A DNA stretch of 21,800 nt from a virus (IMGVR_UViG_3300021254_000251:1-21800), one strand, 5' to 3'; counted from the stretch's first letter, positions 1-2,826 are shown. The notes: generated by a model not told the origin, from the sequence alone. Program-made: numbers and translations.

Positions 1-515
1 ATATCTTTAATAAGTTGTTCGATACTTACTGGTGTACAATTATGAGCATCTACAGCTACATTATAAATACTATATTGTCCAAATTCAAATTTATTAGGGC
101 TATGAGTATGTCCAGATAAATTCCAAAAGAAGCGTTCATCTTCAAAATTGCTTACAAAAGTAGGATAATGAGAAAGAAAAAATACTTTTCTTTTATTGTA
201 TTTATATATTGAAGCGAAACCAAGATATGTCATATTATATTCTGTTTGATATTTATTAAGTTTATTCTTTGTATCATGGTTTCCCCAAATAACAATTTTT
301 TCTCCGTTTAATACTTTATAAACTCGATTCCATTCCTTTTCATTTCCGCTCATACAAAGGTCGCCAAGAATATATACAGTATCTTCTGGAGTAACAACAC
401 TATTCCATCTTTTAATAATTTCAGTATCATGTTCTTCTATTGAAGAGAAGCCGCGCGGCCGCCAAATAAAATCTTTGTCATGGCCGATATGAAGGTCAGA
501 TGTAAAATAAATCAT
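1..515 (-). CDS. Calcineurin-like metallophosphoesterase (putative 2',3'-phosphatase of an RNA-repair cassette); N-terminus at 515, C-terminus runs past the window edge
   Basis: Reverse-complement translation from the ATG at 515..513 gives MIYFTSDLHIGHDKDF...ILGDLCMSG...IWGNHD...FLSHYP...SGHTHSP. These are the DxH, GDxx, GNHD and GHxH metallophosphoesterase motifs. Not in the ORF track because no stop lies inside the window. Only a 2-nt gap separates it from the upstream kinase gene. Confidence 0.8.
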   Translation of the reverse strand, partial: MIYFTSDLHIGHDKDFIWRPRGFSSIEEHDTEIIKRWNSVVTPEDTVYILGDLCMSGNEKEWNRVYKVLNGEKIVIWGNHDTKNKLNKYQTEYNMTYLGFASIYKYNKRKVFFLSHYPTFVSNFEDERFFWNLSGHTHSPNKFEFGQYSIYNVAVDAHNCTPVSIEQLIKD

Positions 516-516
516 A

Positions 517-1008
517 TTATTTCCTTTCTAAGAGATTCATATTTATTCCATCAAAAGTATAGATATAATCAAATGGCTCATTATAAGTAGGAGGCTCTAG
601 TCTAGTATACATATTATGAATTTCATGCGGTGGTACATAGGCCAAAGTGCCTTTTCTAGTATCATTACGAGATAGACAAATCTCAAGAGGAATTTTAAAG
701 TAAATTCCTATTATTATTGTTTTTGTCCTATCAATATGTAGAGCATGAAAAAGTTTGTAACGGCTTTTTAAATTTAAATGGGTGGCGTCCGCGATAACAT
801 CTTTTCCTTCTGCAATGTTTTCATTAATTTGTCGAATAAACTCTTTATAGACTTGTTTTTCTTTAGAAAAATAATTGTCTTTTTTATCAATCAATGAAAA
901 TCTAATATTGTCTCTTGAGACATGGGTTATTCCTAATAAATTCTTTTTAGCAAGGGTAGTTTTGCCTGAACCAGGAATACCCATAAAAACATATAAAATA
1001 TTTTTCAT
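517..1008 (-). CDS. Polynucleotide 5'-kinase, P-loop, similar to the kinase domain of T4 Pnk
   Basis: 163-aa ORF. Walker A GIPGSGKTT, then HVSRDNIR (compare T4 Pnk GCPGSGKST ... NRDDYR), DVIADATHLNLKSR (T4 VIISDTNLNPERR) and RKGTLAYVPPHEIHNMY (T4 KRGTKAVPIDVLRSMY). Match is to remembered T4 sequence, not a search result. Confidence 0.8.
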   Translation of the reverse strand: MKNILYVFMGIPGSGKTTLAKKNLLGITHVSRDNIRFSLIDKKDNYFSKEKQVYKEFIRQINENIAEGKDVIADATHLNLKSRYKLFHALHIDRTKTIIIGIYFKIPLEICLSRNDTRKGTLAYVPPHEIHNMYTRLEPPTYNEPFDYIYTFDGINMNLLERK

Positions 1009-1011
1009 AAT

Positions 1012-1566
1012 TTATCTCTGCCAATCAATCCAATCGTAAGGAATAGTTTGATTTTGTTCAGGAGTATACCAACGTCCTGAGCGACTTCTTATCTGCCATC
1101 TTCTTTCTGCGGTGCTATATCTTTCATTACGTGTTTCTAAAGTAGTTCCAAAAATATAACGAATACTATTGTCTTTATTTAGTTTTAGAGAAATCCATTT
1201 TCTATGGCCTCTTCTTACATAAAAATCACTGGTAATAAGCTGTCCCGTATAACTTTCATATGCATACCAACGATTGCCGCCATCCCGCAGTCTAATTTTA
1301 CCTTGTGTCAAACTGCCTCTTGGGGAGCCAGGAATACTTGTTTTATGCCCATAATACCAATGGCCTTCAAACTTAAAGTATCCGGTCATAAGTTTTCCAT
1401 GCTTAAAAATATAAAGATTTCCTGATTCATCTCCAATAATTCCGTGGACAGGCTGCCGCTCTTTCATTTGTTCAAAAGTTACTCCAGTTTTCAAGCTATC
1501 CTTAGCATAAACTGGATTTGCCATTAATACAATAGCAATGAAAAAAATAGTAAAAAGTCTTTTCAT
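1012..1566 (-). CDS. Secreted protein with putative cell-wall/choline-binding-type repeats
   Basis: 184-aa ORF. N-terminal signal-peptide-like segment MKRLFTIFFIAIVLMANPVYA. Downstream aromatic/Gly repeats such as GNLYIFKHGKLMTGYFKFEGHWYYGHKT and GGNRWYAYESYTGQLITSDFYV fit the GW..G.WYY...G.l.TGW cell-wall-binding repeat consensus. Gene-dense operon context. Confidence 0.5.
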   Translation of the reverse strand: MKRLFTIFFIAIVLMANPVYAKDSLKTGVTFEQMKERQPVHGIIGDESGNLYIFKHGKLMTGYFKFEGHWYYGHKTSIPGSPRGSLTQGKIRLRDGGNRWYAYESYTGQLITSDFYVRRGHRKWISLKLNKDNSIRYIFGTTLETRNERYSTAERRWQIRSRSGRWYTPEQNQTIPYDWIDWQR

Positions 1567-1599
1567 AATATTTACTCCTTTATTTTATATTTTATATTT

Positions 1600-2826
1600 T
1601 TACTGATGAAACTTCAGCAAGAACTCATTAGATACTGCCTTAAAAGATTGCACTCCATCTTCCGAGCGGAAAACAATACCTTCGCGCATATCTCCGTCTA
1701 CCTGAGAAGCATCGGTTGCGTATTCTAGCAACTCGTCAACAGTATCGGGCAGAATGAATTTGCTATTGATAACTGGTACGCAAGGAATCCGGTAATAATC
1801 TTCAAGCAACTCTCTCATTTTAAGAGTATTGAATCTACCCTTATCAGATGTAATTAGGTTAAATGCCATAAAATCATGTCCATTCAGATGATAATCTCTC
1901 TTCTGTACTCCTGCACCATAAGTTTCTCCCTGAATTGTAATCCATTCTGCTTCAGGGAACAAACTCAACATTTCAGTTAGAACATGTTCAATATGGTATT
2001 TTTCTGCCATCTCGGTATAAATATTAGTTTCATAAAAGCAAGTTTTGTCAGGCTTATCAAAACAAACATTTCGAGAGCAAACATAGAACTCATTTTTGTG
2101 AGGCCATTTTCCTCTTTTGATAGTGAAAGTAGTTGAAGAACCATCAATCTTTTCAGTTGCAATCCAAGGGTCTTTATTCTGAAGAATCCAAGGCATATTC
2201 TGCACTCTTTCTTCATCAGTTTTCTTTACCCAAGCGGGCCAACCAGTTTTATCTCTTTTCTTTCCGAAGAAAATGAAAAGAAGTTTCTTTCCCCATTCAC
2301 GCTTCATAAGCCAGCGGAAAGGCTGTTTTGCAAAAAGTTTACCATGACGCTGAGCCATTTTCTTATACTTATCTGCGGAAGGGGCTTTGCGGGCGTTATC
2401 TTCTGCTACATAGTAAGTTACCCCAAGCTGTTTAGTGAGGAAACGAGATTCATCGTCTACTCGGTGCAAAGAGCAGTCCTTATGAGGAGTTCCAATTCTA
2501 ATGGTTTTCTCATCTATGATTGCTCCATTGAAATTTGCGGCAGACATAAGAAGTCCCTGAGAAACAGACTTACACATTCTCTGCGTCTTAATCTTATATT
2601 TCTTTTTTGCAAGGAACTCCATATTAGTAAAAGGTTCTACTTCAGGCAGTTTAGAATCAATTTCAAAATAAATTGCAGGGTCTCCCGCCTTAAACTCTCC
2701 CTTTCCAACAACGATAGTCCATCCGCCTACATGAGCAAGTTCTACTCTATCATATCCTTCGATAGGAGTAATATCGTCAATAATTACAACATATGCTAAT
2801 TGTCTAGTGCCATTTTTATCTAACAT
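1600..2826 (-). CDS. ATP-dependent RNA ligase (Rnl family, nucleotidyltransferase fold)
   Basis: 408-aa ORF with ligase motif I ATEKIDGSS (KxDG, adenylated lysine), motif IV EGIVFR, motif V FKAVSNEFLLK. An N-terminal beta-rich extension (AYVVIIDDITPIEGYDRVELAHVGGWTIVVGKGEFKAGDPAIYFEIDSKLP) recalls Rnl5/DraRnl-type N-domains. Strong RBS aagaggt upstream. Lies with the kinase and phosphoesterase. Confidence 0.75.
   Translation of the reverse strand: MLDKNGTRQLAYVVIIDDITPIEGYDRVELAHVGGWTIVVGKGEFKAGDPAIYFEIDSKLPEVEPFTNMEFLAKKKYKIKTQRMCKSVSQGLLMSAANFNGAIIDEKTIRIGTPHKDCSLHRVDDESRFLTKQLGVTYYVAEDNARKAPSADKYKKMAQRHGKLFAKQPFRWLMKREWGKKLLFIFFGKKRDKTGWPAWVKKTDEERVQNMPWILQNKDPWIATEKIDGSSTTFTIKRGKWPHKNEFYVCSRNVCFDKPDKTCFYETNIYTEMAEKYHIEHVLTEMLSLFPEAEWITIQGETYGAGVQKRDYHLNGHDFMAFNLITSDKGRFNTLKMRELLEDYYRIPCVPVINSKFILPDTVDELLEYATDASQVDGDMREGIVFRSEDGVQSFKAVSNEFLLKFHQ

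Follow-up and report, generated by a model that had tools for sequence, protein, structure and literature searches.

What do the genes at the beginning of a viral DNA stretch of 21,800 nucleotides (nt), IMGVR_UViG_3300021254_000251:1-21800 (hereafter the window, that is the whole stretch that was analysed), accomplish together, and on which nucleic acid would they act? The original prediction described positions 1 to 2826 as a three-component RNA repair cassette consisting of a metallophosphoesterase, a polynucleotide kinase and an RNA ligase. The three co-directional genes are present as described, all on the minus strand: the ligase gene (LIG, 1600..2826, 408 amino acids) is followed by the kinase gene (KIN, 517..1008, 163 amino acids), proposed to encode a 5'-OH kinase, and by the phosphoesterase gene (MPE, 1..515), proposed to encode a 3'-end healing enzyme, which runs off the window start and has 171 codons within it. 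While these coordinates stand, the description had overlooked a further open reading frame (ORF) between kinase and ligase, ORF184 (1012..1566, minus strand), which encodes a signal-peptide-like, predicted secreted protein of 184 amino acids.

We favour, with moderate confidence, the reading of the cassette as a co-transcribed module for RNA healing and sealing in a TAG-recoded Firmicutes phage of about 140 kb, with tRNAs as its likeliest substrates and counter-defence as its purpose. The heal-and-seal RNA repair function, as predicted from the genes, is well supported: the three products can be assigned to families and have intact catalytic residues, the gene order is conserved among relatives, and in one relative an HD phosphohydrolase replaces the phosphoesterase. 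The substrates of the kinase and the phosphoesterase, the RNA target and the biological purpose are inferred.

The ligase and its two proposed healing enzymes

Profile searches matched each gene product to its own Pfam family, namely RNA_ligase for LIG, AAA_33 for KIN and Metallophos for MPE. More specifically, LIG matches RNA_ligase (PF09414) at 1.2e-20 over residues 219-398 and the PHA02142 OB domain (PF21189) at 1e-18 over residues 11-94, both above the gathering threshold. The protein ends at residue 408, 12 residues past the motif V lysine, and has no C-terminal appendage. Its succession of an N-terminal OB domain, a long conserved linker and a C-terminal nucleotidyltransferase domain matches the signature of the Rnl5 family, which combines an N-terminal OB domain with a C-terminal nucleotidyltransferase domain and likewise lacks a C-terminal appendage (PMC4408790, PMC7261155). 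LIG matches TIGR02306, the model of the DRB0094 ligase, at 4.1e-33 with the match split into two stretches, and NgrRnl (PDB 5cot) at 3e-31, also in two stretches, with both domains aligned at about 27% identity. The predicted LIG model is of medium confidence (pLDDT 69, falling below 50 at residues 134-168). A Foldseek search with this model placed NgrRnl first over its full length (E 3e-19) and Rnl2 and REL1 next (about 1e-7); the CthPnkp ligase (3ty5, E 0.011) and Trl1 came far lower.

The residues of NgrRnl that contact ATP and metal were taken from PMC7261155. LIG R8, D57, R207, K226, D228, E301, E382 and K396 correspond to NgrRnl R4, D53, R149, K170, D172, E227, E312 and K326, and these eight are unchanged in all of the 74 relatives (59-99% identity) that have a residue at the position. 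This includes the nucleophile and the metal carboxylates of motifs I, III and IV (K226, D228, E301 and E382), invariant in 74/74. The LIG linker, which is about 60-70 amino acids longer than that of NgrRnl, is strongly conserved; the K121-equivalent region falls within it and is unaligned. In NgrRnl, K121 contacts the ATP phosphates from the OB domain, as do R4 and D53, whereas R149 and K326 do so from the nucleotidyltransferase domain. Because NgrRnl is the top match by both sequence and fold and the alignable ATP- and metal-contacting residues are conserved, LIG is, on these comparisons, an Rnl5-type ligase.

This assignment amends the original prediction in two respects. Of the ligase motifs it listed, EKIDGSS and EGIVFR are present but a literal KxK is not, the corresponding sequence being SFKAVS with a single lysine (Lys396) aligned to NgrRnl Lys326. 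Identity as an RNA ligase is retained, while sequence, domain order and fold all replace the proposed kinship with Rnl1 by membership of Rnl5. A DNA ligase or a capping enzyme was also considered and rejected, given the Rnl5 profile, fold and residue matches. A role in aminoacylating tRNA, suggested in PMC10879173, is unlikely because all adenylylation residues are kept and the fold is that of NgrRnl. Rnl5 enzymes prefer Mn2+. In vitro, they seal 3'-OH/5'-PO4 duplex nicks that have an RNA 3'-OH strand, and the physiological role of the family has been called uncharted (PMC5397189).

KIN matches Pfam AAA_33 (2.3e-16), KTI12 (5.7e-10) and phrog_505, annotated 'polynucleotide kinase' (4.7e-19), and its matches in the PDB are the kinase domain of CthPnkp (4jst, 1.4e-5), PSTK (4.1e-5) and Pnkp1 (9e-4). 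The P-loop (G10-IPGSGKTT, pattern GxxGxGK[S/T]) keeps K16 and the serine or threonine at 17, two residues essential in the RNA-repair kinases, in 49/49 non-gapped relatives. The Asp-x-x-Arg motif D33-N-I-R36, the acceptor-site T76 and the lid R118 are invariant in 50/50 relatives of 34-100% identity; by the motif roles given in PMC3902929, Asp-x-x-Arg provides the general base and clamps the acceptor phosphate. No conserved residue in these relatives corresponds to the second lid arginine of CthPnk (R123). The prediction of a T4 Pnk-like kinase is borne out by the P-loop and Asp-x-x-Arg, but the nearest solved relative is bacterial Pnkp, followed by PSTK, and not T4 Pnk itself. KIN scores similarly against the PSTK and Pnkp profiles, far below both cut-offs, and we propose that it is a polynucleotide kinase, rather than a nucleoside or Ser-tRNA kinase, as favoured by its gene context. 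Among the 120 matches listed, KIN homologues are stand-alone proteins of about 160 amino acids. Kinase and phosphatase had been described as separate polypeptides, and this is the case: KIN consists of the kinase domain only and MPE has its own ORF.

The full-length MPE protein counts 180 amino acids in the source contig (ENA ERZ1756110, 140,477 bp), its C-terminal 9 residues lying beyond the window start. It matches Pfam Metallophos (2.2e-8), phrog_547 (2.1e-44), Aquifex aq_1665 (PDB 1xm7, 3.7e-12) and, weakly, ligase-associated PdeM. With an AlphaFold2 (AF2) model of pLDDT 91, Foldseek returned 1xm7 (8e-9) and then, as second-best neighbour, the phosphodiesterase Rv0805, followed by Mre11 and GpdQ. 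The motifs D7-L-H9, G51-D52, G78-N79-H80-D81, H116 and G135-H136-T-H138 are kept in 48-51 of 52 relatives reaching down to 32% identity, and the exceptions at metal ligands occur only in gapped or truncated sequences. Judged by sequence and model, MPE is a binuclear metallophosphoesterase of the phosphodiesterase/nuclease branch, not of the lambda-phosphatase/CthPnkp branch. It reads GDLCMSG where the GDxxDR arginine (CthPnkp Arg237) would stand, and it carries the GNH histidine (H80), a reported determinant of 2',3'-cyclic phosphodiesterase activity (PMC3675462). The phosphatase had been likened to that of Pnkp/Hen1 systems. This is accurate in that MPE is a metallophosphoesterase and not of the HAD type, but the CthPnkp/lambda-phosphatase type does not apply: the GDxxDR arginine is absent, and the structures closest to MPE are aq_1665, Rv0805 and Mre11.

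In the proposed mechanism, MPE would open and remove the 3' phosphate of 2',3'-cyclic-phosphate or 3'-phosphate ends to give a 3'-OH, and KIN would phosphorylate the 5'-OH. The Rnl5 ligase, adenylylated on Lys226, would then seal the 3'-OH/5'-PO4 break with its ends held in a base-paired or structured context. The substrates would most likely be host or phage-encoded tRNAs cut during infection, whose repair would preserve translation capacity, a counter-defence role with a logic analogous to that of T4 Pnkp/Rnl1.

Conservation of the cassette and its variable neighbours

Loci around ligase relatives were gathered from IMG/VR (80) and GTDB (80), designated here by L numbers, and searched with profiles built from the relatives. 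Gene order was counted in the 93 loci with a ligase of at least 39% identity and at least 3.5 kb of downstream flank. LIG is followed by KIN and MPE on the same strand in 64/93 loci, and the order LIG, KIN, MPE is found in every locus with both KIN and MPE (70/70). The KIN and MPE ORFs are separated by 100 nt or less in 52 of these 70 loci and mostly abut or overlap. LIG and KIN lie between -21 and 2224 nt apart, with variable genes inserted in the interval and the trio still linked; this linkage holds at ligase identities as low as 44% and kinase identities of about 35%.

More distant loci display the same association in other forms. In L122 (ligase 40% identity), the ligase is directly followed by an AAA_33-HD fusion which replaces the separate phosphoesterase gene, the pattern expected if a 3'-end-healing enzyme is required there; the L117 ligase has an AAA_33 fusion of 320 amino acids after it. 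Such fusions were found only in distant loci, and none among close homologues of KIN or MPE. Less than 4 kb from the Rnl5 gene, two chromosomal loci carry a Pnkp or an HD-AAA_33 gene, homologous AAA_33-HD kinases pair with Rnl1-type ligases in Bacillus phages, and in D. radiodurans the DRB0098 kinase lies near the DraRnl gene DRB0094 (PMC5397189). That this kinase clade recurs beside an RNA ligase together with a 3'-phosphoesterase, whose fold is interchangeable, argues more strongly than anything else for KIN and MPE healing ends for LIG. The claim that the locus encodes the three activities for healing and sealing 2',3'-cyclic-phosphate/5'-OH breaks is thus plausible in view of the conserved catalytic residues, the gene order and the L122 fusion.

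Several observations weigh against the heal-and-seal module. The TIGR02306 score of LIG, 114.7 bits, is below the curated cut-off of 151.15; KIN matches PSTK, a kinase of tRNA-bound Ser, as well as it matches Pnkp; and aq_1665, the nearest structure to MPE, is of unknown function. Characterised Rnl5 enzymes seal duplex nicks and not anticodon-loop breaks, and the sole known Rnl5 phenotype, that of DraRnl, lies in recovery after ionising radiation and in the reassembly of the genome (PMC5397189). The ligase has no nearby kinase or phosphoesterase in 23/93 loci, and Rnl5 genes are solitary in the cultured Pseudomonas and Microcystis phages examined. Members of the MPE family turn up in 1609 records of cultured phages; the single locus of this kind that was examined, that of vB_PsaM_M1, has the MPE homologue without an adjacent ligase or kinase. 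Finally, most trio loci come from one large and broad gut/rumen phage lineage, so that inheritance, and not selection, may account for part of the synteny.

The solitary ligases, the widespread and at least once partnerless phosphoesterase and the shared lineage would also fit genes that are neighbours by descent and do no joint work, MPE acting alone (for example on second messengers or other phosphodiesters) and KIN on another substrate. Calcineurin-like orthologues of T5 A1 have indeed been proposed to degrade signalling nucleotides (Iyer et al., PMC7824862). We consider such independence very unlikely: KIN and MPE abut or overlap in most loci while the small genes around them turn over, the linkage persists at the low identities given above, and a kinase-fused HD phosphohydrolase stands in the place of MPE in L122. 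A large gut/rumen phage clade links Rnl5 to a kinase and a 3'-phosphoesterase, and this linkage, with the HD fusion of L122, is genomic evidence that Rnl5 acts on RNA ends needing healing, that is, breaks made by transesterifying nucleases or ribozymes. This defined three-protein set gives the Rnl5 family a testable physiological context.

Expression signals of the region were examined. All four cassette ORFs have a purine-rich ribosome-binding sequence and a TAA stop; the KIN stop and the MPE start are 1 nt apart, with AGGAAA upstream of the latter. No terminator-like site was found between the four genes. The sole candidate near the cassette is weak and lies within the LIG coding sequence (1668..1651), and a strong terminator with a 15-bp stem is located further upstream (4549..4514). 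Promoter-like hexamers TTGATA-16-TAGAAT occur on the minus strand at 2911..2938, about 85 nt upstream of the LIG start, as a consensus match only; promoter-like sites across the region show no excess over shuffled sequence.

The genes inserted beside the trio differ between lineages. ORF184 matches no Pfam, PHROG or NCBIfam family at standard thresholds and shows a weak choline-binding-repeat signal (Choline_bind_3, E 0.05). It is clear only in the window phage and the near-identical contigs L001, L081 and L082, with one weak match of 32% in L007, and was rejected as a cassette component, being a lineage-specific insert without a family. In many relatives a gene for a zinc-ribbon protein (99 amino acids, CxxC..CxxC) instead lies just upstream of KIN: it is present in 41/80 IMG/VR and 14/32 GTDB relatives (for example L012 7342-7641) and its product has a match of 1.6e-11 to phrog_1257, a family annotated 'ribosome associated inhibitor A; zinc finger domain'. 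This gene, which may encode a fourth component of the ancestral cassette, has been lost from the window clade, and ORF184 occupies its place in the window phage.

Directly upstream of LIG lies a homing-endonuclease-like gene (2829..3611, minus strand; phrog_559/374, 'HNH endonuclease'). It contains one in-frame TAG (2964-2966), past which the nuclease motif continues, and it is absent from the 99% identical L001, where a small upstream ORF abuts the ligase gene. Homing endonucleases flank or split Rnl5 genes in other phages also. Further upstream, and ahead of the strong terminator, a minus-strand gene (4557..7046) encodes a protein of 829 amino acids with the major vault protein (MVP) shoulder (PF11978, 1.9e-23), a vault repeat (PF17795, 2.7e-8) and a long C-terminal coiled-coil-like tail. 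It is 66-99% identical in many relatives and has no PHROG match; a vault-protein-like gene is unusual in a phage.

Host, genetic code and candidate substrates

Megablast with an 8-kb query found no near-identical cultured phage. This uncultured gut or rumen phage is about 140 kb in size and probably has a Firmicutes host. Such a host is indicated by the lysis genes downstream of the cassette, an r1t-type holin and a GH25/CHAP/GW endolysin, and by the bins of relatives, which fall with Clostridia, Lachnospiraceae and Bacilli in rumen and gut samples. About 2.6 kb, which include the lysis genes, separate the cassette from the gyrase B/A genes downstream of it in the source contig. The gyrA gene itself appears split there (L081 18254-21227) into a DNA_topoisoIV fragment of 169 amino acids, a GIY-YIG/HTH gene (251 amino acids) and the main GyrA ORF, which suggests an intron or the insertion of a free-standing homing endonuclease.

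The proximity of gyrase raises the question of whether the breaks to be repaired are associated with DNA. An Rnl5 ligase could seal nicks with 3'-ribonucleotides, such as primer remnants or misincorporated ribonucleoside monophosphates (rNMPs), as the phage replicates or recombines its DNA, with KIN and MPE cleaning 5'-OH and 3'-phosphate ends in a PNKP-like manner. For DraRnl and NgrRnl, the 3'-OH side alone has to be RNA and the other strands may be DNA (PMC5397189, PMC4408790), irradiated cells that lack DraRnl are late in reassembling their genome (PMC5397189), CthPnk in crystals adds phosphate to DNA oligonucleotides (PMC3902929), and both Mre11, among the structural neighbours of MPE, and its weak PdeM match would suit this role. 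However, kinases of this clade recur together with dedicated RNA ligases (of the Rnl1 type in Bacillus phages, of the Rnl4 type in bacterial Pnkp), the genes right after the cassette are the holin and endolysin and not replication genes, and tRNA genes are frequent neighbours. A DNA substrate is accordingly rather improbable in our judgement.

The genetic code of the phage bears on an RNA substrate. The plus-strand late/structural block (7630..21800) can be read only with TAG as a sense codon: among its roughly 4,500 codons, 60 are in-frame TAG, while in-frame TGA and TAA are missing. Read in this way, fragmented late ORFs join into proteins of 243-1023 amino acids. On the minus-strand block, all genes end in TAA and an in-frame TAG occurs only in the homing-endonuclease-like gene. 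Since the cassette genes have no in-frame TAG and stop at TAA, they would be translatable before the code switch. The late genes depend on a suppressor tRNA, and the cassette may therefore bear on the protection or maturation of tRNAs in recoded phages.

Among RNA targets, tRNA is the most plausible because tRNA genes occur in the fetched ligase flank of 15/114 loci and lie beside the cassette in several. In L117, L060 and L078 a tRNA array on the strand of the cassette begins 0.2-2.3 kb further downstream. For the window phage, searches of the window itself, of the source locus (21 kb) and, in clade relatives, of the sequence up to 10 kb from gyrA gave no tRNA genes. A relative of the same clade, L312 (IMGVR_UViG_3300021399_000006; 142 kb, 85% ligase identity), does have a tRNA array, with a CUA suppressor tRNA at 1605-1677; the tRNAs of this array have no encoded CCA end and no short introns. 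Some relatives have tRNA genes interrupted in the anticodon region by 19-71 nt, a length below that of group I introns. Genes with inserts of about 19-63 nt in or near the anticodon loop, which score 38-47 bits with the Rfam tRNA model, are a Leu tRNA found at L060 12708-12843 (identical to L092 3967-4102) and at L090 1815-1950 (Rfam tRNA 38.6-38.7 bits), one in L071 at 9887-9992 (40.4 bits), two in L117 at 5938-6052 and 6210-6343 (47.0 and 41.4 bits) and one in L278 at 3877-4000. The L060 tRNA-Leu(UAA) has perfect acceptor and T arms, and its 49-nt insert folds into a hairpin.

Such genes suggest that the cassette might serve the maturation or splicing of the phage's own tRNAs, including the TAG suppressor: an endonuclease or ribozyme would cut the precursors to 2',3'-cyclic-phosphate/5'-OH ends, and the cassette would heal these ends and join exons where needed, damage repair not being its task. 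The TAG recoding of the late genes, a window-clade contig with a CUA suppressor and tRNAs lacking encoded CCA, anticodon-region insertions in tRNAs that still score as tRNA, and arrays shortly downstream of the cassette in L117, L060 and L078 are all consistent with it. In addition, a DRB0094-family ligase is 140-fold enriched in phages with tRNA-flanking ribozymes like that of hepatitis delta virus (HDV) (Kienbeck et al. 2024, PMC10879173). A structure-aware motif scan, which detected a published control, nevertheless found no theta (HDV-like) ribozyme in 0.94 Mb of ligase loci and 1.03 Mb of suppressor-tRNA loci, and Rfam returned no HDV-like match at gathering or E-value thresholds. The window phage has no tRNA up to about 20 kb from the cassette, and the window-clade array tRNAs are without short introns. 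The intron calls are few, partly ambiguous in position and without covariation support; the L090 and L092 introns are identical, with the two copies differing by one variable-arm base; and no splicing endonuclease was identified. We therefore regard tRNA maturation as unlikely.

A more specific form of this idea appears doubtful. In this lineage of TAG-recoded Firmicutes phages, the cassette (with the zinc ribbon in most relatives) would be the healing/ligation arm of a protein-dependent pathway by which the phage processes its own tRNAs. By cutting out the short anticodon-region inserts of relatives, or by healing tRNA ends left by a nuclease or ribozyme, this pathway would regulate how much functional phage tRNA is available, the suppressor that brings in the TAG=Gln late code among it. 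If true, the pathway would be the first physiological role for Rnl5 and the first enzymatic tRNA splicing/ligation pathway in a bacterial virus.

The tRNA arrays hold further elements that we record separately. Sub-threshold matches to YrlA (Y RNA-like), scoring 24-35 bits against a gathering threshold of 69, recur within phage tRNA arrays of the rumen phage group (L092 6959-7066, L089 5461-5576, L268 3264-3375, L071 9831-9948) and may be tRNA-like Y RNAs or reflect mere similarity to tRNA. Two rumen contigs recovered via the suppressor-tRNA pattern, L248 (4082-4706, 3098-3399) and L278 (4016-4449, 5893-6253), have extra RNAs within their tRNA arrays: one contains a full ROOL RNA (341 bits), the other a partial GOLLD-like RNA (73.7 bits, below gathering), and both have transfer-messenger RNA (tmRNA) genes. 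The spacers after tRNA-Asp (L060 12019-12090) and tRNA-Asn (L067 3689-3760) have in common the conserved element GAGTAAnGCnnnGAATTGACnGG. In several other inter-tRNA spacers of L060 there are stretches resembling T arms and acceptors for which no tRNA is called.

Returning to the favoured reading, in which the module repairs tRNAs cut during infection, an anti-anticodon-nuclease role may reasonably be one possibility for its purpose. The original prediction went further on two points that the data do not bear out. It drew a parallel with T4 Pnkp and Rnl1 acting against PrrC, which is not supported, the ligase being an Rnl5, a sealer of duplex nicks in vitro. It also took the locus to imply that the host deploys tRNA-cleaving defences, for which the window holds no evidence. 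A search with PADLOC for membership of known defence systems gave marginal matches only (E > 1e-5). If the cassette is a counter-defence module, RNA-cleaving immunity would be predicted in Firmicutes hosts.

Comparison with known repair systems

The combination of a ligase, a kinase and a phosphoesterase for RNA repair in phages has already been described, including calcineurin-like and HD phosphatases in a few jumbo phages (Iyer et al. 2021, PMC7824862). What appears new here, from the gene content, is the association of an Rnl5 with a stand-alone Pnk-type kinase and an aq_1665-type phosphoesterase, together with a zinc ribbon in most relatives, across a large lineage of TAG-recoded phages from gut and rumen. 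No earlier account of this exact gene combination was found in the literature searched, whose scope did not include the main 2016 RNA-repair catalogue, and an earlier description is possible.

The ligase most resembles DraRnl (DRB0094) and NgrRnl, with which it shares the order of OB and nucleotidyltransferase domains, the lack of a C-terminal appendage and the alignable ATP- and metal-contacting residues. It differs from them in being only about 27% identical, in its linker, longer by about 60-70 amino acids, and in falling below the TIGR02306 cut-off. Whereas the DraRnl gene is paired with a DEDDh-like gene (PMC5397189), LIG stands in an operon with a kinase and a phosphoesterase.

Bacterial Pnkp (that of C. 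thermocellum and the Pnkp1-Rnl-Hen1 system) provides the same three activities, uses a metallophosphoesterase and not a HAD phosphatase, and heals ends before sealing them. In Pnkp, kinase, metallophosphoesterase and a ligase domain of the Rnl4 type form one polypeptide, while the cassette distributes its activities over three polypeptides and has an Rnl5; moreover, MPE belongs to the aq_1665 branch and lacks the GDxxDR arginine of CthPnkp. The partner of Pnkp is the 2'-O-methyltransferase Hen1; the window ORFs in 1..7638 and, in the source contig, the genes up to 10 kb away showed no Hen1 or methyltransferase domain.

T4 Pnkp and Rnl1, which act against PrrC, resemble the cassette in being phage-encoded healing and sealing enzymes, and the kinases have the P-loop and Asp-x-x-Arg in common (PMC3902929). 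In T4, however, a HAD phosphatase (DxDxT) is fused to the kinase and Rnl1 is specialised for anticodon loops, neither of which applies to the cassette, and PrrC is the cognate host nuclease, for which the window phage has no known counterpart.

The closest parallels among phages of Gram-positive hosts are in Bacillus phages (Tsamsavirus Thrax4 and vB_BauM_KLEB27-3), where a ligase gene is followed immediately or within 1.3 kb by a homologous AAA_33 kinase; in KLEB27-3 an MPE homologue and an RlaP nucleotidyltransferase lie nearby. Their ligase is of the Rnl1 type (PF09511) and their kinase is fused to an HD phosphohydrolase, in contrast to the Rnl5 ligase, stand-alone kinase and separate phosphoesterase of the cassette described here.

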